From an uncultured Bacilli bacterium (GTDB lineage: Bacteria; Bacillota_I; Bacilli_A; RF39; UBA660): 64,000 nt of DNA. Numbering within the stretch: position 1 is the stretch's first letter; every line of letters begins with the position of its first letter. The notes under the pieces were generated by a model, which worked only from the letters and a program-made list of their open reading frames with translations, did no database searches and had not been told where the DNA came from. The stretch covers positions 117,736-181,735 of the forward strand of contig CAKOLG010000001.1 of the NCBI GenBank assembly GCA_934096175.1, written 5' to 3'. Shown here one piece after another: positions 8,304 through 62,540 of this stretch. The position numbers and the translations under genes were made by a program.

Positions 8304-8315
8304 AAAATCACCATT

Positions 8316-8400
8316 AAAAAAGTGCACACAAACAGTGACTGATATGGCTGCTATCTTCCGATCCTGACCAAGTTACAATATATTTGTTGCACAAACATAT
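8316..8400 (-). ncRNA. ffs: signal recognition particle RNA (small 4.5S/scRNA-type), candidate
   Basis: The minus-strand sequence ACUUGGUCAGGAUCGGAAGAUAGCAGCCAUAUCAG matches the universal SRP domain IV motif (GGUCAGGNCCGGAAGGNAGCAGCCA), including a GGAA tetraloop. The closing stem is GUGCAACAAA...UUUGUGUGCAC, followed by a U-run. It sits next to tadA/dnaX, as scr does in B. subtilis. Confidence 0.65.
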
Positions 8401-8431: not shown

Positions 8432-8447
8432 TGTTTCACGTGAAACA
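8432..8447. promoter_or_regulatory. parS centromere-like site (TGTTTCACGTGAAACA), copy 1
   Basis: Perfect 16-bp palindrome identical to the Firmicutes parS consensus tGTTNCACGTGAAACa. It is origin-proximal. Confidence 0.7.
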
Positions 8448-8654: not shown

Positions 8655-8670
8655 CGTTTCACGTGAAACA
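8655..8670. promoter_or_regulatory. parS-like site (CGTTTCACGTGAAACA), copy 2, one mismatch
   Basis: Same palindrome with one mismatch in the first base. Confidence 0.6.
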
Positions 8671-8710: not shown

Positions 8711-8726
8711 TGTTTCACGTGAAACA
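8711..8726. promoter_or_regulatory. parS centromere-like site (TGTTTCACGTGAAACA), copy 3
   Basis: Perfect 16-bp palindrome, 12 nt downstream of the gyrA stop. Confidence 0.7.
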
Positions 8727-47445: not shown

Positions 47446-47709
47446 ATGAAGTTTTCAAGTGAAAATAGTAAAATCCCTGATTGGATATTGCATCATTTAA
47501 GAAAATATGGCAATTGTTGTTGTGGCAGAGATATAGTCAAGAAAATCGGTAGAGAAAAAATTATAGAAGTTTTGAAACAAGAAGGGTATCCATGTATTCT
47601 TAAAATAATATATGAAAATAAATATAGATATAAGCGAAGAGTAAAATACCCATTAGATGCTTATTATATTTTGGAGATAGAATGTTTGGTAAAAAGTTAT
47701 TATATATGA
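47446..47709 (+). CDS. hypothetical small Cys-rich protein upstream of and overlapping mazF-like gene (possible non-canonical antitoxin)
   Basis: 87 aa. Its 3' end overlaps the toxin start by 4 nt. It contains CCCGRD and is neither a RHH nor an AbrB fold by eye. Confidence 0.35.
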   Translation: MKFSSENSKIPDWILHHLRKYGNCCCGRDIVKKIGREKIIEVLKQEGYPCILKIIYENKYRYKRRVKYPLDAYYILEIECLVKSYYI

Positions 47710-50600: not shown

Positions 50601-51671
50601 TTAATTTGTATATAATTTACTTAATATTTTTGTATTTTTAATTTTATAGATCAGGTACAAAGTAATAAATAATATTAATATACATATTGCAATAGATATA
50701 AAATAACTATAGTATATAAAGAAAATTAGATTAACTCCCCATATTAAATTAGCCAATTTAAATAAAATGATAGTTACTATATTATCTATTATAAAAATGG
50801 TATAAGTAAGATAAGTAACAGCTAAAAATACATTCCAAATTATTGACAGATTTGTATAACCAGATAATTTTAGTATAATTATTATTAATATTTTATCATT
50901 AATTAAATCATTTATAAATATGAATAAATTGATTATGAAAAGAAAAATAATTATAAAAATAAATGGTGTTATTATAGATAACAGGCTATTATATTCCTTT
51001 AACTCAGTTTGATAACTATTATCAAAAAGAGTAGCATTGATATTATGGCTTTTAAATATATTTATTAAATCATCAACTTGTTTTTGTTCGCTTACTTTTA
51101 TTAGAAATTCATTTTCACTATTTTGAATGGTTCTAATTATATTATCTGAAATATAAATTTTATTTTGAAGATTAGAATCTCTCTCTTTATAAAAGCCAAC
51201 AATTTTACAAGTTATTTTCTTTTCTTCTATTGATAGAACAATATTAGAATTTAAAATTTCTTTACTTAAATTTTTATATAAAGATTCAGGTATAATAATT
51301 TCATTATTCTTGTTATTAAATTCTTTTCCATTTTGTATACTGATTTCCTCAGTTGGCAAAATCGGAGTGAGCATTATACTTCCTAATTTTTCGTTATATA
51401 TGTTAATGCTTCCTATATAATAGTAAACTTTTTTTATGCCCTTATTTTTTAATATCTCATAAAATTGATCTTCATTTTCTTTGGTACTAAATGATGTATA
51501 AACTATTCTATTTTCAACTCGATTTTGGAGTTTAGGAATCAAATTCTTTGATATTTGAGCATAGGATTGAATAATTACTATTATAGATAAGAACAAACCT
51601 GATAATATAATATATGAAATAATTTGTCTTTTACTTAATTTTATGAATTCTTTTAATAATAGTGAATTCAT
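50601..51671 (-). CDS. ABC transporter permease, FtsX-like
   Basis: N-terminal TM, an extracytoplasmic domain and three C-terminal TM helices. Downstream of the ATPase in the same operon. Confidence 0.6.
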   Translation of the reverse strand: MNSLLLKEFIKLSKRQIISYIILSGLFLSIIVIIQSYAQISKNLIPKLQNRVENRIVYTSFSTKENEDQFYEILKNKGIKKVYYYIGSINIYNEKLGSIMLTPILPTEEISIQNGKEFNNKNNEIIIPESLYKNLSKEILNSNIVLSIEEKKITCKIVGFYKERDSNLQNKIYISDNIIRTIQNSENEFLIKVSEQKQVDDLINIFKSHNINATLFDNSYQTELKEYNSLLSIITPFIFIIIFLFIINLFIFINDLINDKILIIIILKLSGYTNLSIIWNVFLAVTYLTYTIFIIDNIVTIILFKLANLIWGVNLIFFIYYSYFISIAICILILFITLYLIYKIKNTKILSKLYTN

Positions 51672-52889
51672 TTAATTTTTTAGTTCTTCCATAATATTAT
51701 TTTTTTTAAGCTTATTATTAAATATCAGTGATAACAAGACATTTATGATAATGCAGAATGAAATTCCTAGTATTATATTTAATTTTGAAATTGTTAATTT
51801 TAATCCATATAGCATTTCTTCGTTATTCAAATAACAGTTTTGAAAAACAAAAATTAAGAAGAGAGTTATAATTAGTGTTAGAAACAAAGTTACTAATATA
51901 CATAAAAATGATTCAAGGAATTGTAATTTTATAATATCTACTCGATTATACCCAAGTGTTTTTAATATTGCGTATTTTTTATTTCGCTTATATTGATTTT
52001 TTATTGATATTAAGATGATAACTATGATTGAAATAATCCCCACTAGTAAACCTATCGTTGTAATTAAATTCAAAATTTTATTCCCGATTGTGGTATCAAT
52101 TTTTACAACGGGATCTCCATTTGTATAAAAATGATTTTTTTCAAACCTTTTTAAAGTTTCATGAATATCATCTGTGCTTTTAAGTCTAACTACTAGAGGA
52201 TAAATTATTCCTTCTTCTTCTTTAAATGCTTCTGGCTGATAATACAAATTTAAATTTGTTACAATATCTGAATTTGTATAACAAAAATTTTCTTTTCCTT
52301 GTCTCATAGAGGAATCATAAGTTCCAATTAATCTAAAATTTTCTGTTTTAGTATCATCATCAATAAATTTTAAAGAAAATTGCTTTCCTAAAAGATTATT
52401 TAAATTTATTTCTTTTTTTTCTATTTTGTTTTCTTTTTTATATTCATAGAATATATTTTCAGGACATACCATAACTTTATCACTGGAATTATAATTATCA
52501 ATATTTTCCCCATTAGATATTGATATAGTATCTTTTGGTACTCCAAAAAGAAATAAATTGATTTCAGTATCATGATTAAGTCCCTCAAACATTCTCATAT
52601 TTATTATGTAGGAAGTATAAGGAGATATAGATTCAATCGTATTGTATGATTGCAATTCTGCTAATGCTTCTTTTTCTGTTTTCTCATCAGGATCATAATA
52701 TACAAAAAATGTACGATAATCCACCATCTTTTTAACGCTTTGATTCCAATAGTTATTTAAACTGTTGGAAAAAACTAAGCAAAATATTGTGATTGAAACA
52801 GCTATAGAAATAAAAATAATATTAAAATAATTTGCTTTATTTTTGTAAAATTCTTTAATCTCTATTTTTAACATATCAATTAATTTCAT
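51672..52889 (-). CDS. ABC transporter permease, FtsX-like
   Basis: Same architecture as the previous permease. Its stop is adjacent to the next gene's start (ATGA overlap with the ATPase). Confidence 0.6.
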   Translation of the reverse strand: MKLIDMLKIEIKEFYKNKANYFNIIFISIAVSITIFCLVFSNSLNNYWNQSVKKMVDYRTFFVYYDPDEKTEKEALAELQSYNTIESISPYTSYIINMRMFEGLNHDTEINLFLFGVPKDTISISNGENIDNYNSSDKVMVCPENIFYEYKKENKIEKKEINLNNLLGKQFSLKFIDDDTKTENFRLIGTYDSSMRQGKENFCYTNSDIVTNLNLYYQPEAFKEEEGIIYPLVVRLKSTDDIHETLKRFEKNHFYTNGDPVVKIDTTIGNKILNLITTIGLLVGIISIIVIILISIKNQYKRNKKYAILKTLGYNRVDIIKLQFLESFLCILVTLFLTLIITLFLIFVFQNCYLNNEEMLYGLKLTISKLNIILGISFCIIINVLLSLIFNNKLKKNNIMEELKN

Positions 52890-53556
52890 CTATAATCTCC
52901 GTCCTTCCATTTTTTAGGTAAATAATTTCATCAGCATAATCTTTAATGATGTCATCATGACAAATAACGATCACACATTTATCTTGATTTGAGAGTTTTT
53001 TTAATATACTTAAAATTTTAATTGTGTTTTCTTTATCTAAAGAAGCTGTGGGCTCGTCAGCTAATATAATCTCTGGATTATTGCATAGTGCACGAGCAAT
53101 TGCAACTCTTTGTTGTTCTCCACCCGAAAGTTGATTTGGGTAATGCTTATTCCTGTTTTCTATTCCTAATGAATTCAATAAGTTATTGACTCTTTCAACT
53201 TTTTCTTTTTTTGTTAAATTTCTATTAGTATAAAGTGGTAAAATTACATTTTCTGTGACATTCATTGTTGGAATCAAATTAAAAGATTGAAATATATATG
53301 CTAATTTCGTTTTTCTAAGATTAGCTATATTTTTTTCTGATAATTTTGATGTATTATGTCCGTCTATTTTTAATGTTCCGCTTGTTGGTTCTATAAGAAG
53401 CCCAATTATTTGCATTAATGTAGATTTTCCACTTCCAGATTCACCCATAATTCCATACAATTTTCCTTCTTCAAACTTAATATTAATATCATCTAAAGCG
53501 TTTATGCATTTATTTTTAAATGAATATTTTTTTTGTACATTAATTAACTCTATCAC
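52876..53556 (-). CDS. ABC transporter ATP-binding protein (MacB/LolD/antimicrobial-peptide exporter type)
   Basis: Walker A GESGSGKST, signature LSGGEQQRVAIARAL and Walker B ILADEPT. Confidence 0.85.
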   Translation of the reverse strand: MIELINVQKKYSFKNKCINALDDINIKFEEGKLYGIMGESGSGKSTLMQIIGLLIEPTSGTLKIDGHNTSKLSEKNIANLRKTKLAYIFQSFNLIPTMNVTENVILPLYTNRNLTKKEKVERVNNLLNSLGIENRNKHYPNQLSGGEQQRVAIARALCNNPEIILADEPTASLDKENTIKILSILKKLSNQDKCVIVICHDDIIKDYADEIIYLKNGRTEIIDEIN

Positions 53557-53578
53557 TATTTACCTTCTTTCTTTTTAC

Positions 53579-53992
53579 TTAGTTTTGAGTCATAATTACA
53601 CTATTTGATTTAATTCCACAAAATTGTCTTCCACCTGTATAATTTGTAGAGAAACCATATGCATATCGTCCATTTTTAAATTTTCCCATATTAGCTCTAA
53701 CGCATCGGTATAATTCTGTACTCATCATTTTACCAGATACTTGAGTGGTTGGACTGTAGTGTAATGTAACCCATAAAAGTTTTTCTCTATTAGATGTGCA
53801 ATCTGTATGAGCGTCCATAGAAATATCTATGATAAAATTTTTTGTGTCAAACCATCTATAGGAACCGATATGATTTGAATTAGCTGGCATATTTAATGTT
53901 GATTTATATTCAGCAGCAGAAACTTTTGTTGCCCCAAAAAGAGATAAAACAGCTATTCCAAAAACAAATAACGGCATTAATAATTTTTTCAT
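53579..53992 (-). CDS. secreted ~110-aa protein with 4 Cys, first gene of ABC exporter operon (bacteriocin-like candidate)
   Basis: Sec signal peptide MKKLLMPLFVFGIAVLSLFGATKVSA/AE. The mature domain is Cys-containing and beta-rich. The operon structure matches lactococcin-972-type loci. Confidence 0.45.
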   Translation of the reverse strand: MKKLLMPLFVFGIAVLSLFGATKVSAAEYKSTLNMPANSNHIGSYRWFDTKNFIIDISMDAHTDCTSNREKLLWVTLHYSPTTQVSGKMMSTELYRCVRANMGKFKNGRYAYGFSTNYTGGRQFCGIKSNSVIMTQN

Positions 53993-55307: not shown

Positions 55308-55789
55308 AAAAAACTCGAAAAATTTGGATACTATTATCAATTTTATTTTTGATAATAGTATCATCATTAATTGTTTTATTCAAAAAACCAATAAATAAAA
55401 TGGAAAGTAATAACTTGGATACAAATGAAAAATTTAATAAAAAGGAACAAAAAATAGTAGATGCAGCTTATAAAAAAATTGATAGTTCAGATTATTTTGA
55501 CCATTCTAATTTAAAAAAAATTGAACTAGAGAGCTTGCAATTATATGGATATTATAAATCTCAAAGCAATATTCTTTATATAAGGGTTAATTATAATTCA
55601 GAATGTAAAGATGGTACTTATAGTTGTGATAATCTTGCTAAAGATAAATCTTATAGCTTATCAAATAATATTCCATTTTATTTTTTTATTAAAGTAGATA
55701 CAAATAATTATAATCATTTAGAGATAGTTGATGGAATATCAGCCAATATAAATTCTGATTGGATATCAGATTCTAGTAAAATAGAGTAA
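55295..55789 (+). CDS. membrane-anchored hypothetical protein
   Basis: N-terminal TM (IWILLSILFLIIVSSLIVL). It overlaps the preceding gene's end. Confidence 0.45.
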   Translation: MHGLKKTRKIWILLSILFLIIVSSLIVLFKKPINKMESNNLDTNEKFNKKEQKIVDAAYKKIDSSDYFDHSNLKKIELESLQLYGYYKSQSNILYIRVNYNSECKDGTYSCDNLAKDKSYSLSNNIPFYFFIKVDTNNYNHLEIVDGISANINSDWISDSSKIE

Positions 55790-55892
55790 TATCATCAAAT
55801 AAAGCAGCAATAGAAAATAATATATTTCAAAAATTAAATTAAAAAAATATATTGACTAATATTTGATTAAATGTTAATATTATTATGACAAA

Positions 55893-55965
55893 TGAATACG
55901 GTGTATTTTCGGTGTTAATTATATATAGACCTTGGTTGGTTTTTTATAGTTAACACTTTTTTATT
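55893..55965 (+). repeat. conserved inverted-repeat/terminator-like element, copy 1 (TACGGTGTATTTTCGGTGTTAATTA...AGTTAACAC-TTTTTT)
   Basis: The arms GGTGTTAAT / (A)GTTAACAC, with conserved upstream TACGGTnnATTT and a downstream T-run, recur at 57866-57927. Confidence 0.55.
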
Positions 55966-56169
55966 ACCTAATATTTATTTTATATGTCCGGACTATAAAT
56001 AAAATATGGTATTTATATCTATTGTGTTCAATTGTCAATCATTTTATTTGATATTATGATTGAAACGGACTTGAATACGGTATTTTAAATCTTTCTATAT
56101 ATTAGATAAAAAATTTAATATTTAAGCAATTTTTTAATATTCTAACAAAAGCAGCAACAGGAGATCCAT

Positions 56170-56385
56170 ATGTATACAATGTACGAACCTACAGGGAATA
56201 TAATAGGTTATATTCAACCTCATGATTTCTATGTTAGATATCTGGTTAGTAGCCCTAGTATGGATAATGTTCATAGAGTTGTGTTTAATGATGGTAAAGA
56301 TGTTAAAATAGGTTATATAAGAGAACAGTATGTTTTACCTAGTATGACTTTAAATCCTACTGATGATGAAGCAGTAAAAGCATAA
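56170..56385 (+). CDS. hypothetical small protein
   Basis: 71-aa ORF downstream of element copy 1. No signal peptide. Confidence 0.35.
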   Translation: MYTMYEPTGNIIGYIQPHDFYVRYLVSSPSMDNVHRVVFNDGKDVKIGYIREQYVLPSMTLNPTDDEAVKA

Positions 56386-56388
56386 ATA

Positions 56389-56724
56389 TTGGTAGGTTAT
56401 GAACCATTCACTTGTGTAGAATATGATCAAGCTTCTGATGAATATATACTGCATAAATGGAAAGATACACCATCAAGAGAAATCTATATTAATAAACTAG
56501 TCCCTTATTTTAATGCCCAATGGTCTTATGTAGGGATGCTTAATAAAGGTGATTATATAAAAATAAATAGAGGTAATTTTATTAATCCAGGGTACACAAG
56601 ACCATGGACAAATCGTATAGATGGAATTAAGAAAAAAGGTAGTATTTCATTTACTAGTTTTTCTGGTTATGCAATTATTGGAATTGAGTACGCTAGTCAA
56701 GGATATGAAAGAGCTTGGTATTAG
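56389..56724 (+). CDS. hypothetical protein
   Basis: 111-aa ORF, 3 nt after the previous gene. Aromatic-rich, with no signal peptide. Confidence 0.4.
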   Translation: MVGYEPFTCVEYDQASDEYILHKWKDTPSREIYINKLVPYFNAQWSYVGMLNKGDYIKINRGNFINPGYTRPWTNRIDGIKKKGSISFTSFSGYAIIGIEYASQGYERAWY

Positions 56725-56785
56725 AAAACTATCATTAGATATTATCAAGTATAATATAATATGATATAATAGTTTTGGTGATTAA

Positions 56786-57007
56786 GCTGAAAATATAATT
56801 ATACTTTTACTTTTGATATTATGTGTATGTGGATGTGAAAATAACAATCAATATACAGATTTTAAACATTATGATTTAAGGAATTATGATATTACTAATA
56901 AATATTCCTATGTAGATGATGATTATATATATTATAATGGAAGTACTAGTATTTCTAGTTCAATTGAAGTTGTCAAATGTTCTAGAAATAGTTATAAATG
57001 TCAATAA
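56786..57007 (+). pseudogene. small lipoprotein-like ORF lacking an AUG/GUG start (remnant or non-canonical ATA/ATT/TTG initiation)
   Basis: The in-frame sequence AENIIILLLLILCVCGCENNNQ looks like a signal peptide plus lipobox, but no Met lies between the upstream stop (56783-56785) and the lipobox. A GGTGA RBS sits 13 nt upstream of ATA 56795. Confidence 0.25.
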
Positions 57008-57090
57008 TAAAATACCAAACTAAAACTATTATCATGATTAATAAAGAAAATGCTTGATATGCATTTTCTTTATTTTATTTATAGGCGAGG

Positions 57091-57849
57091 ATGGTGATTA
57101 AAATTAAACTTGTAACTAAAATATTTAAAAGAAATGATTGGTATGTAACTTCACCTTTTGGAAGTAGAAATCCAATTAAAACTAAAAAAGGTATAACCAC
57201 CAGCTTTCATAATGGATGCGATTATGGAACTAATGGAGAAAAGTGGGGACAATATGCTTTAGAAAATGGCAAAATTTTATCTTGTGGAATCGCTTCTGAT
57301 GGAGCTAAATATATATGGGTAAATTATCCAAGAATCAATAAAAAAATTTTGCACTACCATTTAGATAGTATTTGTGTAAAAACGGGGCAAGAAGTTCATG
57401 AGGGATTATTACTTGGCTATACAGGTTCAACTGGTATGGCTACAGGAATTCATTTACATTTAGGAATGAAAAATAGTAATGGTGGAGACTATGAAGATCC
57501 ACATAATTATGATTACCAGTTAAATAACATTAATCATTCTGAGACATCTAAAATGGATTTAATAAAAATTGCTTATGAAGTAATTGCAGGGAAATATGGT
57601 AATGGAAAGACTAGAATTGATAAACTTACTAATATGGGATATAATGCAAGTGATGTTCAAAAGATAGTAAATGAAATAAAAAATAAAGAGCTAAAACGGA
57701 CAAATTTTTACATAGTAAAAAAAGATGATACTCTAATAAAAATAGCTAAAAAATTTGGAACAACATGGGAAAAATTATATGAATTAAATAGAGACATTAT
57801 AGGTAATGATCCTGATTTAATTAAAATAGGTCAAATATTGAAATACTAG
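57091..57849 (+). CDS. M23 (LytM) peptidase with C-terminal LysM domain, no signal peptide (endolysin-like)
   Basis: HNGCDYG...GYTGSTGMATGIHLHLGM (HxxxD/HxH zinc site) and LysM YIVKKDDTLIKIAKKFGTTWEKLYELN. The N-terminus is not a signal peptide. Confidence 0.7.
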   Translation: MVIKIKLVTKIFKRNDWYVTSPFGSRNPIKTKKGITTSFHNGCDYGTNGEKWGQYALENGKILSCGIASDGAKYIWVNYPRINKKILHYHLDSICVKTGQEVHEGLLLGYTGSTGMATGIHLHLGMKNSNGGDYEDPHNYDYQLNNINHSETSKMDLIKIAYEVIAGKYGNGKTRIDKLTNMGYNASDVQKIVNEIKNKELKRTNFYIVKKDDTLIKIAKKFGTTWEKLYELNRDIIGNDPDLIKIGQILKY

Positions 57850-57865
57850 TAAAAAAAATTTATAA

Positions 57866-57927
57866 TTACGGTAATTTATTCGGTGTTAATTAGTATATAA
57901 TTTTTTATATTGATTAACACCTTTTTT
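57866..57927 (+). repeat. conserved inverted-repeat/terminator-like element, copy 2 (TACGGTAATTTATTCGGTGTTAATTAGTATATA...TTGATTAACACC-TTTTTT)
   Basis: The 9-bp arms GGTGTTAAT / ATTAACACC with a T6 tail. It sits 55 bp upstream of the holin gene. Confidence 0.55.
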
Positions 57928-57982
57928 ATATTTGTTAAAGAGTAGATGTTTTAAGTCAATTTTATAAAGAGAGGGGAAGAAA

Positions 57983-58417
57983 ATGAAACAAGTTCTTGAT
58001 AAAATAATTAGTTTTTTGTTATATTTTTTGCTTTTTCTATTTGGAAGTTTTGATTTTATGTTAAAAACTTTATTGTCTTTAATGTTTATAGATTATATAA
58101 CAGGTGTAAGTAGAGCATTTATTACAAAAAAGGTTAATAGCAGTATAGGAGGTAAAGGAATTATAAAAAAAGCAGTATACTTATGTGTTGTTGCAGTAGC
58201 AGTAATATTAGACAATTTATTGGAAGTAAACGGAGGTTTAAGAGCTTTAATTATATATTCATTTATTTTTAACGAAATGTTATCAATTTTAGAAAATAGT
58301 AGTGCTATGGGAATCAAAGTTCCTAATATTTTATATAAATCACTTGAAAAATTAAATAAAGATCAAAATGAAAATGATAAAGAAATAGTAAAAAGTGAAG
58401 AATCAAAGCATAAATAA
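57983..58417 (+). CDS. TcdE/UviB-family holin (toxin-secretion/phage-lysis holin, Phage_holin_4_1-like)
   Basis: Three TM helices, MFIDYITGV and the central TKKVNSSIGGKGIIKKAVY. Compare C. difficile TcdE SRKFNSSFGIDGGIRKVAM. Charged C-terminal tail. Confidence 0.7.
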   Translation: MKQVLDKIISFLLYFLLFLFGSFDFMLKTLLSLMFIDYITGVSRAFITKKVNSSIGGKGIIKKAVYLCVVAVAVILDNLLEVNGGLRALIIYSFIFNEMLSILENSSAMGIKVPNILYKSLEKLNKDQNENDKEIVKSEESKHK

Positions 58418-58879: not shown

Positions 58880-59356
58880 ATGGGTAAGTTCCCAAAAAGA
58901 AGAAAAAGTAAGGATAATCCGTATACACTTGGATTTGATGAAATAAAAAAGACTTATACTATTTCATTTAAAGATGTGAATAACATTATTCAAGTGATTG
59001 AAATAAATGAATTGTTATATAAAGAGTTCAATAAGTTTGAATTAGAAGATTTATCTGAAATGAATGAATATGATAATCATATTGAGCACTCAGAACTTTA
59101 TGAAGAAACTTTATATAAAAGATCTTTTAATAAAGATATATCAATAGAAGACAATATTGAAACTAAATTAATGGTAGAACTATTAAACATTTTTATAGAA
59201 GAATTACCAACTATACAAAAAAATAGATTAAAAAAGTATTATATAGAACACAAAACATATGAAAAAATAGCAATAGAAGAAGGATGCACAAAAAGAGCAG
59301 TAAAATTTAGTATAGATATTGCAATTCAAAAATTATCAAAAAAATTTAAAAATTAG
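58880..59356 (+). CDS. sigma-70 region-4-like HTH regulator (possible TcdR/UviA- or RinA-like activator)
   Basis: C-terminal LPTIQKNRLKKYYIEHKTYEKIAIEEGCTKRAVKFSIDIAIQKL resembles ECF/sigma region 4. A basic N-terminus. 158 aa. Confidence 0.5.
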   Translation: MGKFPKRRKSKDNPYTLGFDEIKKTYTISFKDVNNIIQVIEINELLYKEFNKFELEDLSEMNEYDNHIEHSELYEETLYKRSFNKDISIEDNIETKLMVELLNIFIEELPTIQKNRLKKYYIEHKTYEKIAIEEGCTKRAVKFSIDIAIQKLSKKFKN

Positions 59357-59477
59357 ACTACACAAAACATATTTAAGTTAGGAAACAAGTGAAAGGGATA
59401 TAATACTCTTTCACTTGCTATCCAAAAATTTTATAAGCTAATTTTAAAAGATTTAGTGTTTAATAGTCAAAATCATA

Positions 59478-59663
59478 ATGAAAAAATTTACAGTAGAAAT
59501 AAATCAACTAAAATCACTTTCTTTTGAAGTAAATGCAAAAAACAAAAAAAGTGCAAGACAAATGATTACCGATTTTATCAATAAAGTAGATTTAAACAAT
59601 TTGAATTTAAATTGCTTAAAAAAAGAAAATGTTAAAGTGGTTGTAAATAGGTTAAGAAAATAA
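59478..59663 (+). CDS. hypothetical small basic protein
   Basis: 61-aa ORF with a GGA-less weak RBS. Low confidence. Confidence 0.3.
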   Translation: MKKFTVEINQLKSLSFEVNAKNKKSARQMITDFINKVDLNNLNLNCLKKENVKVVVNRLRK

Positions 59664-59681
59664 AAGAACGGAGATGAAAAA

Positions 59682-60017
59682 ATGGCATATGTAAAAAGAG
59701 TACCACCAATTAAGTTAATTCTTACAAAGAAAGAATATAACACTCTTATAGGTATTTTAACAAAAAATGTGGATGAAAATAATGATGCAACAGCTAGAGA
59801 ATTATCAATTAATACTAAAGAAAAATTATTAAAATATAGTATACCACATGAATTAAATGAGAACGATGTAGAGATTGATGTAAGATTATATTTAAATGAG
59901 GCAGCAGATATTATAACTGAGTTATTATTATATAATGTAAAAAGAATTAACGAGATAAATTATTATGAAGTTTTGATAAAAGTTAGAGAATCATTTGTAA
60001 ATCATACTGACGATTAA
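59682..60017 (+). CDS. hypothetical protein
   Basis: 111-aa ORF after GGAGATGAAAAAATGG-type RBS (AACGGAGATG). Confidence 0.4.
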   Translation: MAYVKRVPPIKLILTKKEYNTLIGILTKNVDENNDATARELSINTKEKLLKYSIPHELNENDVEIDVRLYLNEAADIITELLLYNVKRINEINYYEVLIKVRESFVNHTDD

Positions 60018-60116
60018 ATTAGTATTAAATCTTTTAAAAATGTAATTAAAAATTTGGAAAGCTTAGATGTACTAAAAATTTGCATTAAAAATTTAATATT
60101 TAAGGAGATGAAAAAA

Positions 60117-62540
60117 ATGGCAAATAATGAAGTAGTAGGAGATCCATATGTATTTTATACACAAAAATGGTTAAATGATACTTATGGAAATGACAGTAGA
60201 TTTAATACTGTTACAGAAAATGGTAAAACAGGATGGGCTACCATTTATGCTTTAACAAGAGCATTACAAATTGAATTAGGAATTCAATCAACAGCTGATA
60301 ATTTTGGAAATGGAACACAAAAAGCATTTAAAACTCAATATCCTAATGGTGTACAGCAACAATCATCAGATGATAAAACAAAGAAGAACATTTATGGAAT
60401 CATCCAAGGAGCACTATTATGCAAAGGATATGCAATAGGTGCTAACACACCTACCTGTAATTTTTACGGAGGAACAGGTGGCGCAATAAAGAAATTAAAA
60501 GCAGATGCAGGATTAACAGATACAAGTTCGACAGTAACATTGAATATAATGAAAGCATTATTATCAATGGATTATTTTTATTCTTATGATACATCAACAA
60601 GAACTCAAAATATTATTAGTATGCAAAGATATCTAAATAGAAATTATGAAGCATATATTGGAATTAGACCTTGTGATGGAGTATATTCTCGTAGAACAAG
60701 TCAAGCATTGATATATGCAATTCAGGCAGAAGAGTGTATGCCTACTTCAGTAGCTAATGGTAACTGTGGACCATCTACAAAGCGTTGTCTACCAACATTA
60801 TCAGTAACTGGATCATCATCAGGAACTAGTTATAAGGGACAAGCATATTCAACTGCTAGTTTAAATAAATTTAAAACTTTAGCAAATATAGCATTATATT
60901 TTAATGGATTTGGTTCAGGAGAATTAACATCTAATTTAGACGAAAATACTATAACAAGTTTTCAAACTAAGTACTCTATTTTAGCGACTGGGAAAATAGA
61001 TTATACAACATGGTTATCTCTATTAATTAGCTGTGGAGATACAGATAGAAGTGCTAGTGCATGTGATTGTGCTACTATTTTAACACCAGCAAAAGCAAAA
61101 ACTTTGTATGATAATGGTTATCTTCGAGTTGGAAGATACTTATCTGGATATATTGCAAGTGGAGCAAGTAAAGCATTAACAAAAAAAGAATTGCAAATTG
61201 CTGCTGACGCAGGATTATATATTTTCCCAATTCATCAATCAAGTGCTAACAAGGTTTCATATTTTACAACTGCAAATGCAGTAAAAGATGTAGACAGTGC
61301 TTTTGAACATGCAAATGCACTAGGTATGCCTAGTGATACTAGTATTTATTTTGCAGTCGATTGTGATCCTTTAGATACAGAAATAACCTCTAATATTATT
61401 CCATATTTTACAACAATAAATAATATAATGAAAAGTAAGTATAATAATAAATACCCTGTTAGTATATATGGAACAAGAAATGTTTGTACGAGAGTTAGTA
61501 ATAAAGGCTTAGCAAAATACAGTTTTGTTAGTGATATGTCAACAGGATTTAGTGGAAATTTAGGATTTCCTATTCCAGATAATTGGGCATTTGACCAATT
61601 TGCAACCGTTACTGTTGGATCTGGAGATGGTAAGATTGAAATTGATAAAGATGCAATGTCTGGTAGGGATCTTGGATTAATAGGTGATTTATATTTAAAG
61701 GATTATGGGAAGGTATATTATAATTTAGTTGATATGTATAATTTAGCATTAGATTATACTAATAACAATGAAGAAAAAAGTAATTTATTAGTTTTACAAT
61801 ATCTCAGAAAGGGACGCTATGGTGATACATCTATTTTTTGTGGTGATTCATTATCGGGAGATGCCTCAATTATTAAGTGGGAAATTGTAGCTGGTACTAT
61901 AGACAAAGGATATTGTAATTTAGTAGACAGCAAATTATATAATTTGAATTTTGATTTTGTGGATTCATCTGTAAATCCTACTACATCACATGATTTACCA
62001 CACTTGGCAGCTACTCTAAATTCGTTGCTATACCAAATTGGAAATGATGATTTAAGAGGTTTCGATGAATTAGTTGATTGTTACTCTGGATGGGCAGGAG
62101 ATACAATTTCGTATGCAGATTCAATTCAAAAAGCCGTGAAAGATGGATTAACTACTGATTATGTTAAATGGGCGAAAGATAATATTTGTACCCCAAACGA
62201 AGCACATTTTAACCTTCAAGATTATATTGATGATATTGATGCATATAATTTATACCATATGATTAAATTTAAAGGGTATACTCTGCCAGAAGCGTTTTAC
62301 TTTTATTATGTTTTATCATCATTAGAAACTCATAAATATGAGTATGAGAAAAGAGCAAGCAGATTTTTAAATTATATGTCAACATCTCATTTCATTGATC
62401 TTTGTGAGTTAATAAATTCTGATGAAACTCCTATAAAACAGTTAAAGAGAACATTAAGTAAAGCTGAACAAAAATATATTGATGCAGCAATAGATGCATT
62501 TAAATCATTTATATTCAAGGAATATGTAGAAGGAAGATAA
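60117..62540 (+). CDS. large modular cell-wall hydrolase-like protein: 3x peptidoglycan-binding (PG_binding_1-like) repeats + DUF1906/GH25-like TIM-barrel + ~290-aa uncharacterised C-terminal domain, no signal peptide
   Basis: PG-binding repeats (GWATIYALTRALQIELGI; IIQGALLCKGYAIG; SMQRYLNRNYEAYIGIRPCDGVYSRRTSQALIYAIQ). DUF1906-like block LRVGRYLSGY...ELQIAADAGLYIFPIHQ...IYFAVDCDP...VSIYGTRNVC. ATG 60117 sits 9 nt after AGGAG. The N-terminus MANNEVVGDPY is not a signal peptide. Confidence 0.65.
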   Translation: MANNEVVGDPYVFYTQKWLNDTYGNDSRFNTVTENGKTGWATIYALTRALQIELGIQSTADNFGNGTQKAFKTQYPNGVQQQSSDDKTKKNIYGIIQGALLCKGYAIGANTPTCNFYGGTGGAIKKLKADAGLTDTSSTVTLNIMKALLSMDYFYSYDTSTRTQNIISMQRYLNRNYEAYIGIRPCDGVYSRRTSQALIYAIQAEECMPTSVANGNCGPSTKRCLPTLSVTGSSSGTSYKGQAYSTASLNKFKTLANIALYFNGFGSGELTSNLDENTITSFQTKYSILATGKIDYTTWLSLLISCGDTDRSASACDCATILTPAKAKTLYDNGYLRVGRYLSGYIASGASKALTKKELQIAADAGLYIFPIHQSSANKVSYFTTANAVKDVDSAFEHANALGMPSDTSIYFAVDCDPLDTEITSNIIPYFTTINNIMKSKYNNKYPVSIYGTRNVCTRVSNKGLAKYSFVSDMSTGFSGNLGFPIPDNWAFDQFATVTVGSGDGKIEIDKDAMSGRDLGLIGDLYLKDYGKVYYNLVDMYNLALDYTNNNEEKSNLLVLQYLRKGRYGDTSIFCGDSLSGDASIIKWEIVAGTIDKGYCNLVDSKLYNLNFDFVDSSVNPTTSHDLPHLAATLNSLLYQIGNDDLRGFDELVDCYSGWAGDTISYADSIQKAVKDGLTTDYVKWAKDNICTPNEAHFNLQDYIDDIDAYNLYHMIKFKGYTLPEAFYFYYVLSSLETHKYEYEKRASRFLNYMSTSHFIDLCELINSDETPIKQLKRTLSKAEQKYIDAAIDAFKSFIFKEYVEGR

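Follow-up and report, generated by a model that had tools for sequence, protein, structure and literature searches.

Conserved box-plus-terminator units with a predicted gating role precede toxin, transporter and lysis operons of a bacteriocin-like island from uncultured gut Bacilli

Two box-plus-terminator units in the island

We identified two copies of a conserved unit, in which short G-rich boxes are fused to a terminator hairpin, in the 64-kb stretch of DNA that was analysed (the window). Judged from sequence, there is roughly an even chance (about 0.5) that such units gate the operons of the surrounding island through attenuation or antitermination by an island-encoded factor. The observations behind this reading are the structure of the terminator, its covariation, the architecture of the leader cassette in which copy 1 lies and the recurrence of the unit before the same kinds of operon in relatives. 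The island is mobile and bacteriocin-like; besides recombinase genes it contains genes for ~800-aa toxins, for an ABC transporter and for an M23 endopeptidase, as well as a TcdE-type holin gene. The parts of the two copies are as follows.

55899-55901, plus strand: box 1 of copy 1 (CGG, with the GG invariant), 8-9 nt before box 2 (alignments A3 and A6)
55910-55962, plus strand: copy 1, with box 2 (CGG, 55910-55912), terminator hairpin (55911-55957) and T-run (55957-55962) (fold, covariance model and covariation)
57869-57927, plus strand: copy 2, a solo unit with box 1 (CGG, 57869-57871), box 2 (57881-57883), hairpin (57882-57921) and T6 (57922-57927) (fold and covariance model)

A first-pass annotation had placed two look-alike copies at 55893-55965 and 57866-57927. 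Both are present, as are the shared sequence, with the exact 14-mer TTCGGTGTTAATTA at 55908 and 57879, and the distal arm followed by a T6 run; 52 of 74 aligned columns are identical between the copies. The bare 14-mer match is within chance for a window of 26% G+C. Alone, the 14-mer has 3 matches with at most 2 mismatches versus 1.2 expected, a count equalled in 9 of 100 shuffles, and 251 repeated 14-mers occur in the window versus ~132 in shuffles. The significance of the copies comes instead from the extended match together with the structure, from conservation in other species and from the covariance model, which matched exactly two sites in the window (E = 3.5e-13 and 1.4e-07; 84.9 bits for copy 1 and 55.5 bits for copy 2). 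The two look-alike elements are thus confirmed as a real observation.

Structure and covariation of the terminator hairpins

Each copy forms a long, almost continuous hairpin followed by T6 on the transcribed strand. The 9-bp stem with a ~25-nt loop that had been annotated gives way to much longer hairpins (13+5 bp in copy 1 and 16 bp in copy 2). In copy 1, 55911-55923 pairs with 55945-55957 and an inner 5-bp helix is added (-22.3 kcal/mol, z = -3.6), while the 16-bp stem of copy 2 (57882-57921) reaches -19.1 kcal/mol (z = -5.05), with none of 200 shuffles as good. A covariance model was built from relatives, and its search yielded 22 copies, spread over 12 loci that come from gut metagenomes and from genomes of uncultured Bacilli/'Mollicutes'. 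The first 14 relatives collected all have the same fold followed by T5-T8, and in a few weaker relatives the T-run is shorter or interrupted, as in L228:2897 with TTTTTGTTTT.

In the alignment of 14 sequences, 99.5% of the stem cells are paired with 5 compensatory pairs, none of 500 shuffles being as good and slid controls reaching 36-60%. Among 22 sequences (alignment A6) 97.8% of the cells are paired and 8 of 13 pairs show compensatory changes, in 37 cells, again with no equal among 500 shuffles; fitting of this alignment to the model biases its pair counts in favour of structure. G·U pairs outnumber A·C combinations by 31 to 1, which indicates an RNA structure on the coding strand, and the GG/C(C) base of the stem is conserved among relatives. 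The contigs of the same species (L121-L132) are at least 99.6% identical and hold no informative variation. A stable G·C-based stem-loop, a 3' U run and a conserved structure, the hallmarks of Rho-independent terminators, are all found, and by structure both copies are predicted to be such terminators. The earlier description of a terminator-like element with conserved sequence outside the stem holds, since the GG box and the CGG-based stem are kept in relatives, and the check it named, a search for further copies and covariation, gave the 22 copies and compensatory pairs above.

Alignment A3 shows no exception to the GG of box 1, which the 22 sequences of A6 also keep. This GG lies 7-11 nt, mostly 8-9 nt, from the stem in 22 of 22 copies, and this spacing holds in the diverged leaders of ABC operons and in solo units despite changed flank and stem sequences; as the covariance model requires boxes as well as hairpin, their association in these 22 matches is in part a product of the search. 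For box 2 (CGG), its place as the G+C-rich base of an otherwise A+U stem may be the whole reason for its conservation. Box 1 (CGGTAG) presumably resembles the ops element, and GG-N8-CG is a pattern that we take to be similar to the elemental pause consensus. Pairing of box 1 with the 3' arm, as in an antiterminator, or with UACC after the U-tract was considered and rejected, as it is not kept in close relatives. Pairing of the box CGG with the CCGG tip of hairpin P (described below) was rejected too, as it reaches 3 bp at most and shows no covariation.

The leader cassette around copy 1

Copy 1 is part of a cassette of ~280 nt in which a sigma-A-type promoter, TGACAA, the GG box, the CGG-based terminator and a hairpin with GUCCGGAC at its tip are followed by TTGTCA, which pairs with TGACAA, a second (type-B) box pair and a ribosome-binding site. 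The cassette is not in Rfam: in a search of 55700-58100 against Rfam 15 nothing reached the gathering score, and matches with E <= 10 were noise (snoRNA and miRNA models).

55852-55880, plus strand: P1, a sigma-A-type promoter (TTGACT-17-TAATAT, TGn upstream of the -10) (promoter scan and conservation)
55886-55897, plus strand: TGACAAATGAAT, a conserved sequence that opens the P1 transcript and supplies the 5' strand of long-range helix H1 (conserved in 15 leaders)
55892-55918, plus strand: mini-ORF ATG..TAA (MNTVYFRC), ending in the 5' arm of the terminator (read from sequence)
55971-56007, plus strand: hairpin P, with the invariant GUCCGGAC (55986-55993) at its tip (leader alignments)
56026-56037, plus strand: GTTCAATTGTCA, which supplies the 3' strand of H1 and for which a role as -35 of a promoter P2 was weighed (pairs with 55886-55897)
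56055-56128, plus strand: type-B region, TATGATTGAAACGG-N9-ACGGTATTTT..CTTTCTATATATTAGAT..ATTTAATAT, with CGG at 56066-56068 and 56078-56080

A lone promoter match means little, because the promoter scan gave 84 promoter-like sites in the sequence and 85 in shuffles. The -35 and -10 of P1 (TTGACw and TAnnnT) are found at 16-17 nt spacing in all full leaders, with diverged spacers between them, and the terminator of copy 1 follows P1 after ~25 nt. In helix H1, 88.7% of the cells are paired, with 3 compensatory pairs and 18 G·U versus 2 A·C; shuffle support is modest, 20 of 500 shuffles pairing as well. A second promoter P2 (TTGTCA-17-TATGAT) was rejected, as TTGTCA and TATGA are only 12 nt apart in some leaders and up to 19 nt in others. 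Pairing with TGACAA accounts better for TTGTCA than a role as promoter -35.

In hairpin P, TTTATATGTCCGGACTAT is invariant among toxin-type leaders (A1/A4), the leaders of ABC operons keep only the GTCCGGAC core and the leader of the L228 M23 gene keeps TATGTCCGGACTAT. The outer stems differ in sequence between species with their pairing kept, and most leaders can form the hairpin. Individually, 4 of 9 leaders fold better than shuffles (p <= 0.03), one of the four being L228a, which has a different fold without GUCCGGAC at the tip. The type-B region corresponds to what had been described as a half copy: TGAATACGGTATTTT is indeed present at 56072-56086, belonging to a distinct, highly conserved box pair and not to a degenerate copy. 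It is nearly invariant over ~100 nt in 8 leaders, takes a diverged form in the leaders of ABC operons and is decayed in a pseudogenised leader of L135. The type-B boxes occur without a convincing terminator, and their regions resemble those of the type-A boxes, read in the same sense. The downstream proteins are 55-75% identical, and conservation is far stronger in the TGACAA/TTGTCA pair, GTCCGGAC and the type-B region.

A strong conserved promoter followed after ~25 nt by a strong terminator could also represent a small-RNA gene. Its ~75-80 nt RNA would carry the terminator hairpin behind a single-stranded 5' region and act in trans, for instance by titrating a protein whose other targets are the type-B boxes of the mRNA leader; the likeness of type-A and type-B boxes in the same sense would agree with this. 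We regard a small RNA as quite improbable. Solo units such as copy 2 are without a conserved promoter of their own, H1 needs the 5' end and a sequence ~140 nt downstream in one molecule, and no complementary target was found.

The mini-ORF raises ribosome-mediated attenuation, in which a ribosome that has passed the rare Arg codon CGG and reached the stop would melt or mask the 5' arm. All type-A copies indeed carry CGG-NNN-(TAA/TGA/TAG) at the stem base, with a varying middle codon (TGT, TAT, TAC, AAT, GGC or CGT), and an in-frame ATG is found in the window, L133, L135, L139, L140 and L145. However, L137, L227, L229, L230, L228a and copy 2 have no in-frame ATG, GTG or TTG; the mini-ORF is probably not a general leader peptide, because the in-frame start is missing in about half of the leaders. 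Nor is there a Shine-Dalgarno sequence, the 5' leader is only ~5 nt long, and a T-R-R pattern is expected anyway from A/G transitions in a stem. The conserved ORF, start and ribosome-binding site that mark a leader-peptide attenuator were not found together here, and this explanation is very unlikely.

Genes behind the units and their recurrence in relatives

56160-56724, plus strand: toxin-gene remnant, with the opening codons (GGAGATCCATATGTATACAATGTAC) of a gene for an ~800-aa toxin and, behind them, ORFs of 71 aa and 111 aa (comparison with L143 and other strains)
57838-57866, plus strand: promoter-like TTGAAA-17-TATAAT, overlapping the end of the M23 gene (promoter scan)
57983-58417, plus strand: TcdE-type holin gene downstream of copy 2 (Pfam PF05105, E = 3.8e-35; TIGR01593 'toxin secretion/phage lysis holin')

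Copy 1 is not immediately upstream of the 56170 ORF, as had been thought, since ~205 nt lie between them. In L143 an intact toxin gene follows the equivalent leader, and the 71-aa and 111-aa ORFs form a single ORF of 182-184 aa in other strains. As judged by this comparison, the toxin gene behind copy 1 is deleted in the window. A second N-terminal toxin remnant is found in L135 (7740-7825). Copy 2 is located between the stop codon of the M23 gene (57849) and the start of the holin gene (57983). A unit of the copy 2 type occupies the matching place in L143 and L227, with a compensatory change from GGUG/CACC to GGCG/CGCC. Whether the promoter-like sequence at 57838-57866 is a promoter is uncertain; it is weakly kept in L143 and L227.

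The proposal that the element recurs upstream of island operons like a cis-regulatory unit agrees with its distribution in the window and in relatives. The unit precedes genes for ~800-aa, peptidoglycan-hydrolase-like toxins in L133, L135 (two leaders), L137, L139, L140, L143, L145 and L227, ABC-transporter operons in L228, L229 and L230, M23 peptidase genes in L228, L135 and L229, and holin genes in the window, L143 and L227.

This distribution bears on two other explanations. The units could be ordinary terminators without special regulation and with functionless boxes, alike through paralogy and recombination among toxin cassettes. Islands do contain several paralogous toxin genes with near-identical leaders, deletions between repeats have left toxin remnants (at 56160 in the window and at 7740-7825 in L135), the three type-A hairpins of L135 are 100% identical, which suggests gene conversion, and the CGG of box 2 is explicable as a stem base. 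Against this, the spacing of the box 1 GG is kept in 22 of 22 copies though flank and stem sequences have changed, and TGACAA/TTGTCA, GTCCGGAC and the type-B region far exceed the downstream proteins in conservation. We therefore think it unlikely that nothing more than termination is involved. The suggestion in the first-pass annotation that the element is a miniature mobile element did not survive. A short repeat with internal inverted repeats in an island with recombinase genes might recall a MITE, but the 64-kb window holds just two copies, both ahead of island genes, and the copies in relatives, too, lie on the coding strand at homologous leader or intergenic positions ahead of like genes. 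Terminal inverted repeats and target-site duplications are absent, what looks like an inverted repeat is the stem of a terminator with a U-tract behind it, and viral contigs gave no convincing copy, so that a MITE-like origin is hardly credible.

Candidate regulators

58880-60017, plus strand: candidate regulators, namely a sigma region-4-only protein (158 aa), a 61-aa ORF and a 111-aa protein (p111b)

In the predicted model of the 158-aa protein, a sheet of three strands and a long helix accompany a region-4 fold, and region 2 is missing. Its C-terminal 70 residues superpose on ECF sigma region 4, the -35-binding domain, with an rmsd of 1-2 Å. The family comprises at least 770 clusters, mostly in unrelated contexts without boxes. 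As the specific partner of the boxes this protein was rejected: 80 metagenome loci with homologues of 37-58% identity have neither boxes nor module genes, and the link to the boxes is for that reason not specific. The small family of p111b, with 53 clusters, is always found together with the module. Comparison of p111b with known structures gave no significant relatives, only weak KH-like matches (TM <= 0.3), and p111b does not resemble sigma region 2. The island was not found to encode a complete sigma factor (regions 2 and 4), and no ArpU-like protein, a type of regulator that had been suggested, was identified among its proteins.

The presence of a sigma-like protein raises the question whether the boxes act on DNA. 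In that case the GG/CGG boxes (TGAAACGG / TGAATACGG) would be an operator or alternative promoter bound by the sigma-region-4-only HTH protein; factor-dependent transcripts would start inside the hairpin and escape the terminator, and transcripts from P1 or further upstream would be stopped. The boxes resemble ECF -35 elements and are direct repeats with 11-12 bp spacing, about one helical turn. The superposition on region 4 speaks for such a protein, and the invariant 8-bp palindrome GTCCGGAC resembles a site for a dimeric DNA-binding protein. An alternative-sigma promoter of the TcdR/UviA/ECF type would keep its -35 and -10 elements 16-18 nt apart; TAnnnT follows box 1 after 16-17 nt in most type-A copies, and it is also found at a fixed distance from the second type-B box. 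However, in type A it lies within the 5' arm of an A+T-rich stem, where chance hexamers arise. Further points against binding to DNA are the unrelated, box-free loci of the homologues, the lack of a region 2 in the 158-aa protein and of a sigma-2-like p111b, and the near-consensus sigma-A promoter of all leaders, which should need no activator. The excess of G·U over A·C in H1 and the pairing of differing arms around GTCCGGAC point to a constraint on RNA, not DNA. Action of the boxes on DNA is accordingly doubtful. No autoregulatory element was found upstream of the sigma-like genes, and the covariance model detected no cassette upstream of any of the regulator genes, as expected if the regulators are upstream in a cascade.

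Comparison with known regulatory systems

In bgl/sac operons, paired RAT-terminator modules with Rho-independent terminators serve as leader or internal attenuators. The units described here share with them a stem-loop with U-tract, a conserved sequence overlapping the 5' side of the stem, and a position in the leader and again inside the operon. They differ in that the flank forms no RAT-like or conserved hairpin; its two short G-rich single-stranded boxes are nearer to HutP/TRAP-style recognition. No CAT/PRD (BglG-type) protein was found among the island proteins scanned.

Late control in phage lambda consists of the constitutive PR', the promoter-proximal terminator tR' and the Q antiterminator, followed by the lysis genes. 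Likewise, the cassette has a constitutive-looking strong promoter directly followed by a terminator, and terminators would gate holin and lysis genes; a terminator ahead of lysis genes as in Q-type control is found, with the holin gene after copy 2. A -35-like TGACA is conserved at the start of the transcribed region (about +1). Neither a Q homologue nor a conserved -10-like pause element after TGACA was found, and solo units, unlike lambda, have boxes without promoter or TGACA, so that the likeness is functional only. In colicin operons an internal terminator separates toxin and immunity genes from the lysis gene, and lysis protein is made by read-through only. Copy 2 holds that kind of position before the holin gene, but in a Gram-positive host with holin/M23 lysis genes and with a terminator flank that is shared with operon leaders. 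Pyocin P-boxes, at which the activator PrtN acts, are DNA sites upstream of promoters. One short cis element before every bacteriocin or lysis operon and regulator genes without the element are common to both systems; the boxes in the island, in contrast, follow the promoter and form one unit with a terminator.

Leader terminator/antiterminator systems are present on Gram-positive mobile elements, such as conAn of pLS20 (PMC8191782) and canT of Tn916 (PMC11658703). The zipper-type attenuator cATT of pLS20 has three segments with the terminator at the end, and its upstream segment forms an antiterminator by pairing with terminator sequence (PMC13401043). Long structured leaders with embedded terminators, on mobile elements whose host is protected from untimely expression, are a common feature of these systems and the cassette. 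A long-range helix is used here as in cATT, but the terminator stands at the front, enclosed by H1, and its arms take no part in that helix. Processive antiterminator RNAs (conAn2, canT, put and EAR) are structured and located upstream of the terminators that they suppress; here the structured part of the leader lies downstream of the cassette's own terminator and upstream of the solo terminators. Searches of annotated phages and plasmids by blastn gave no match, viral contigs scanned with the 14-mer and the GTCCGGAC block gave chance matches only, and protein-based scans of viral contigs gave nothing useful.

Proposed mechanism

With P1 only ~25 nt before a strong terminator, P1 transcripts should by default stop at the terminator of copy 1, after ~75-80 nt. 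The leader 3' of the terminator shows RNA-type conservation on the same strand, which implies that read-through transcripts must exist and matter. Since the terminator precedes all other structured parts of the leader, the downstream parts cannot decide on termination, and a trans-acting factor would be needed. We propose that an island-encoded factor, for which the module-specific p111b (111 aa) and the sigma-region-4-only protein are candidates, recognises the conserved 5' flank, part of which falls within the 5' arm of the stem, on nascent RNA or paused polymerase. The unit would then act as a promoter-proximal (copy 1) or internal (copy 2) attenuator that is read through on demand. Copy 2 is such a box-plus-terminator unit but lacks the other parts of the leader, and its position between the M23 and holin genes suggests that holin is made only if the terminator is passed. 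Regulated read-through, its manner and its factor are what we infer.

A further step, which we offer tentatively, is that the cassette is an undescribed structured leader RNA that forms, with p111b and possibly the sigma-region-4-only protein, a new antitermination system dedicated to a whole regulon. That regulon would comprise toxin, ABC transporter, M23 peptidase and holin in uncultured gut Bacilli. If true, the cassette would be the cis-acting signature of a regulon that times toxin release by self-lysis in a common uncultured human-gut bacterium, and, as a mark on every operon of the system, would make it simple to locate such islands, with their cargo, in metagenomic data. The switch is a testable one, with a strong promoter, an immediate terminator, conserved boxes and, close by, two candidate regulators that are uncharacterised. 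At the least, the gene picture of the window is corrected, the ORFs after copy 1 lying at the site of a toxin gene that was apparently deleted, and the predicted terminator of copy 2 would insulate the holin gene from the M23 gene.

Two intrinsic terminators in a toxin and lysis island

The first-pass annotation had placed two look-alike elements at 55893-55965 (copy 1) and 57866-57927 (copy 2), and reading of the sequence confirmed both positions as well as the exact 14-mer common to both copies (TTCGGTGTTAATTA, at 55908 and 57879). The copies are identical in 52 of 74 columns of a global alignment. The 14-mer by itself proves little in a window of about 26% G+C, in which 251 repeated 14-mers occur compared to about 132 in shuffles and a search allowing two mismatches gave 3 matches (1.2 expected). 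The pair stands out through structure. The RNA fold of copy 1 is a 13-bp helix (55911-55923/55945-55957) with an inner 5-bp helix (-22.3 kcal/mol, z = -3.6) and that of copy 2 is a 16-bp helix (57882-57921; -19.1 kcal/mol, z = -5.05), and no shuffled sequence folded as well as either copy. These long, stable helices show that the 9-bp stem with a loop of about 25 nt described earlier was an underestimate, the real stems having 13+5 bp and 16 bp. In both copies TTTTTT follows directly 3' of the hairpin. Both are canonical intrinsic terminators, and it is very likely that they function as such. The genes of the island are as follows.

Genes around the two copies
56170-56724: split 71-aa plus 111-aa ORF
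56813-57007: small ORF, followed by a generic terminator at 57040-57074
57091-57849: M23-CW_7-LysM endopeptidase
57983-58417: TcdE-type holin
58880-59356: 158-aa sigma-like protein
After the 158-aa sigma-like gene: 61-aa ORF and 111-aa ORF (p111b, 59682-60017)
60054-62540: 828-aa protein with PG_binding_1, Rv2525c-like glycoside-hydrolase-like and YkzU domains

M23 and holin proteins identical to those of the window are encoded, in the same gene order, on hundreds of contigs from human-gut metagenomes; since these contigs are at least 99.6% identical in DNA, they offer no useful variation. In many of those strains the 71-aa/111-aa pair is a single ORF of 182-184 aa. More distant database loci (handles with L; gut metagenome contigs and genomes of uncultured Bacilli or 'Mollicutes') were reached through M23 homologues of 65-74% identity (L133, L135/L136, L137) and through homologues of the 111-aa protein (L227-L230). 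A scan for the invariant leader block in one genome per species gave eight loci, four of which are true leaders (L139, L140, L143, L145), all in metagenome-assembled genomes of uncultured Bacilli or 'Mollicutes'. The other four, of high G+C, were rejected as chance matches.

Every sufficiently long locus (L133, L135, L227-L230) contains a shared module, which consists of one or more genes for PG_binding/Rv2525c proteins of about 800 aa, each followed by a small ORF, together with an M23 peptidase, a holin, the sigma-like gene and a homologue of the 111-aa protein; the modules of L228-L230 also include an ABC-transporter operon. In L133, L135, L229 and L230 the module is flanked by genes for a serine recombinase or integrase. 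Several paralogues of the ~800-aa protein occur per island (60054-62540 in the window; L133, L135, L143, L227-L230), conserved over the first ~530 residues and variable in the C-terminal part (YkzU or other). This organization resembles that of polymorphic toxins, with the small downstream gene in the place of an immunity gene.

Copy 1 opens a conserved leader cassette

Alignments (A1 and A4, with diverged versions also aligned) showed that copy 1 opens a conserved cassette of about 280 nt. Its parts in the window are listed below; type A denotes the box-plus-terminator region of copies 1 and 2, and type B a second pair of boxes.

Parts of the leader cassette
55852-55880: P1, sigma-A-type promoter, TTGACw-17-TAnnnT, usually with TGn before the -10
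From 55886: conserved transcript start, TGACAA(A/T)T..
55899-55901: box 1, CGG, GG invariant
55910-55912: box 2, CGG, opens the terminator stem
55911-55957: terminator hairpin, then T-run at 55957-55962
55971-56007: hairpin P, with invariant GUCCGGAC as its tip (55986-55993)
56032-56037: TTGTCA, partner of TGACAA
56055-56128: type-B region, TATGATTGAAACGG-N9-ACGGTATTTT..CTTTCTATATATTAAAT..ATTTAATAT
Directly after the type-B region in relatives: ribosome-binding site

The sequence previously noted as a recurring half copy is present, but it belongs to the type-B region of this same cassette. The cassette precedes a ~800-aa toxin-like gene in L133, L135 (two leaders), L137, L139, L140, L143, L145 and L227. 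A diverged, collinear version precedes the ABC-transporter operon in L228, L229 and L230, and L228 has a further version ahead of its M23 gene. The finding is real: in uncultured gut Bacilli, a toxin/transporter/lysis regulon is marked by a conserved leader cassette that had not been described before.

Copy 2 has box 1, box 2, hairpin and T6 but none of the remaining cassette parts; this solo unit lies in the gap that separates the stop codon of M23 (57849) from the start of the holin gene (57983). A solo unit occupies the same M23/holin position in L143 and L227, and comparable units are found ahead of the M23 gene in L135 and, in weaker form, in L229. The M23-holin gap of 21-30 nt in L133 and L135 contains no unit.

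The cassette-bearing ABC operons of L228-L230 have a counterpart in the window, on the opposite strand at 50601-53992 (-), which comprises a 137-aa ORF and genes for an ABC ATPase and two permeases of the FtsX type. The upstream gap of this operon is only 119 nt long, and the covariance model described below found no cassette there. At four further loci (L147:13342, L167:13350, L170:13349 and L172:13367) a distant homologue of the sigma-4-like gene is followed, after about 3.3 kb, by a conserved TATAAT-type promoter and then by GTGAACGGATGTGGACGGTGTCCACAATTTGTCCACAG, which contains two CGG boxes 10 nt apart and a GTCCAC repeat. This may be a comparable box element belonging to another mobile element.

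A toxin gene appears in the relatives at the position where the window has only a remnant. Just before the 56170 ORF the window reads GGAGATCCATATGTATACAATGTAC, the L143 counterpart of which encodes the toxin N-terminal sequence GDPYVYNV, and in L143 the same leader is followed by an intact toxin gene of about 800 aa and then by homologues of the 71-aa/111-aa ORFs. The toxin gene has therefore been deleted in the window strain, in which the leader and the downstream gene, presumably an immunity gene, remain. At 56160-56724 the leader of copy 1 now drives the remnant of the first toxin codons, fused to the 71-aa plus 111-aa pair; this likely immunity gene was later split by a stop codon in this strain. 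Decay is also seen in L135 (7460-7830), where a leader is followed by a decayed toxin N-terminus and the type-B boxes and ribosome-binding site are mutated.

Covariation supports RNA structure in and beyond the terminator

A covariance model built on 14 copies matched exactly two sites in the window (E = 3.5e-13 and 1.4e-07). The expectation that relatives hold further copies with a covarying stem was borne out, as the model found 22 sites from 12 sources at E <= 0.005. A mobile-element origin was considered and is excluded by the distribution of the copies. In the 14 hand-collected copies 99.5% of the stem cells are paired, with compensatory changes in 5 of 13 pairs; none of 500 shuffles paired as well, and slid controls reached 36-60%. 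The 22 model-aligned copies gave 97.8% paired cells, compensatory changes in 8 of 13 pairs (37 cells), 0/500 shuffles and 34-58% in slid controls, although these counts lean towards structure because the alignment was fitted to the model. Depending on the lineage, the stem after CGG is TGT/ACA, TAT/ATA, TAC/GTA, AAT/ATT, GGC/GCT or CGT/ACG. The 31 G·U pairs versus a single A·C mismatch are the signature of an RNA helix on the coding strand, and together with the covariation they make the identification as a terminator solid.

RNAalifold predicted a long-range helix, H1, in which the 12 nt that begin the P1 transcript pair with a 12-nt segment whose end is TTGTCA. H1 is 88.7% paired in 14 leaders, with three compensatory pairs, and its shuffle control is modest (20/500 pair as well). 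Its bias of 18 G·U versus 2 A·C, however, favours a helix formed in RNA over an inverted repeat in DNA. The arms of hairpin P pair in most leaders despite unlike sequences (UUUAUA/UAUAAA versus GGUAUUUAUA/UAUAGAUAUU and UUUAUUUUAA/UUAAAAUAAA). Four of nine leaders beat shuffles (p <= 0.03), including L228a, an exception in that GUCCGGAC is not the tip of its minimum-energy fold; the Fisher combination of the nine values is about 1e-4. The tip is an invariant 8-nt palindrome on arms that vary between species, and could be a protein site or a site of loop-loop (kissing) dimerisation.

Proposed conditional read-through and candidate factors

We favour conditional read-through of the terminator, a statement that as a whole is plausible at a probability of about 0.5. 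P1 looks strong and would need no activator, and the terminator comes within ~25 nt of it. The box-plus-terminator unit is reused inside operons, just ahead of lysis genes, and RNA-type constraints also extend into the leader beyond the terminator. If H1 and hairpin P exist as RNA structures, some P1 transcripts must extend beyond the terminator, which makes it a conditional one; a rival reading is that the terminator ends a separate small RNA of about 80 nt. Because every other structure of the leader lies downstream of the terminator, the choice between stopping and reading through must be made by a trans-acting factor, whose target would be the 25-nt flank or the polymerase.

The boxes bear on two other rivals. 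Box 2 may be conserved merely as the G+C-rich base of an A+U stem, and the copies might be plain paralogous terminators without special regulation. The GG of box 1, however, lies 7-11 nt (mostly 8-9) upstream in 22 of 22 copies, solo units included, and is not explained by a role as stem base. The other rival is a leader peptide: a mini-ORF in the window (ATG 55892 to TAA 55918, ATG AAT ACG GTG TAT TTT CGG TGT TAA, MNTVYFRC) has its stop codon in the 5' arm of the terminator, and CGG-NNN-stop is found at the stem base in all 22 related copies, yet roughly half of the leaders lack a start codon in frame.

The 158-aa sigma-like protein and p111b are candidates for this factor. Their genes are encoded together, and the covariance-model search found no cassette at them. 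The 158-aa protein has only weak Sigma70_r4 matches. In its predicted structure (pLDDT 77) a three-strand sheet and a long helix precede a C-terminal domain, which can be superposed on ECF sigma region 4 at 1-2 Å; the model contains no region 2. This domain bears on a further rival, in which the boxes would act as DNA sites for this region-4 protein, possibly in a factor-dependent promoter with its -10 in the stem and with transcripts escaping termination. The family comprises at least 770 clusters, nearly all of exactly 158 aa, and occurs across many unrelated mobile-element-like loci, high-G+C Firmicutes contigs among them; module genes and boxes were absent at 80 metagenome loci with homologues (37-58% identity). 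The 158-aa protein is probably a general mobile-element regulator, with a putative tie to this element. The p111b family (53 clusters) was found only in this toxin/lysis module, mostly right after the sigma-like gene or the 61-aa ORF and, in L135, upstream of the sigma-like gene. Its confident model (pLDDT 90) is beta-alpha-alpha-beta-beta-alpha-alpha, without significant match in Pfam, PDB sequences or Foldseek/PDB, where KH domains reached TM <= 0.3 only.

Relation to known systems

Gathering and permissive Rfam scans gave no match to the element. Functionally closest are attenuators of the bgl/sac style, which have a recognition flank in common and sit both in leaders and inside operons; the PR'-tR'-Q arrangement of lambda, which precedes lysis genes; the terminator upstream of colicin lysis genes; and recently described terminator/antiterminator systems embedded in leaders of Gram-positive mobile elements (PMC8191782, PMC11658703, PMC13401043). 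[quoted passage not shown] Intrinsic terminator is the only known class whose defining features were found in the element, and its likeness to the other systems is functional.

Other elements in the window

At 34662-35146 (+) the window contains an OLE (ornate large extremophilic) RNA of full length (233.5 bits), followed by an L31 ribosomal-protein leader at 35764-35794. The host of this OLE RNA appears to belong to a common human-gut lineage labelled as uncultured Bacilli/'Mollicutes'. An SRP RNA gene lies at 8306-8400 (-). Beside it, a stretch of less than 300 nt contains three occurrences of the palindrome TTTCACGTGAAA, which can be extended to GTTTCACGTGAAAC (8434-8445, 8657-8668, 8713-8724); one more, with one mismatch, is at 47453-47464, giving 4 matches versus 0.23 expected. 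This arrangement looks like a clustered operator site.
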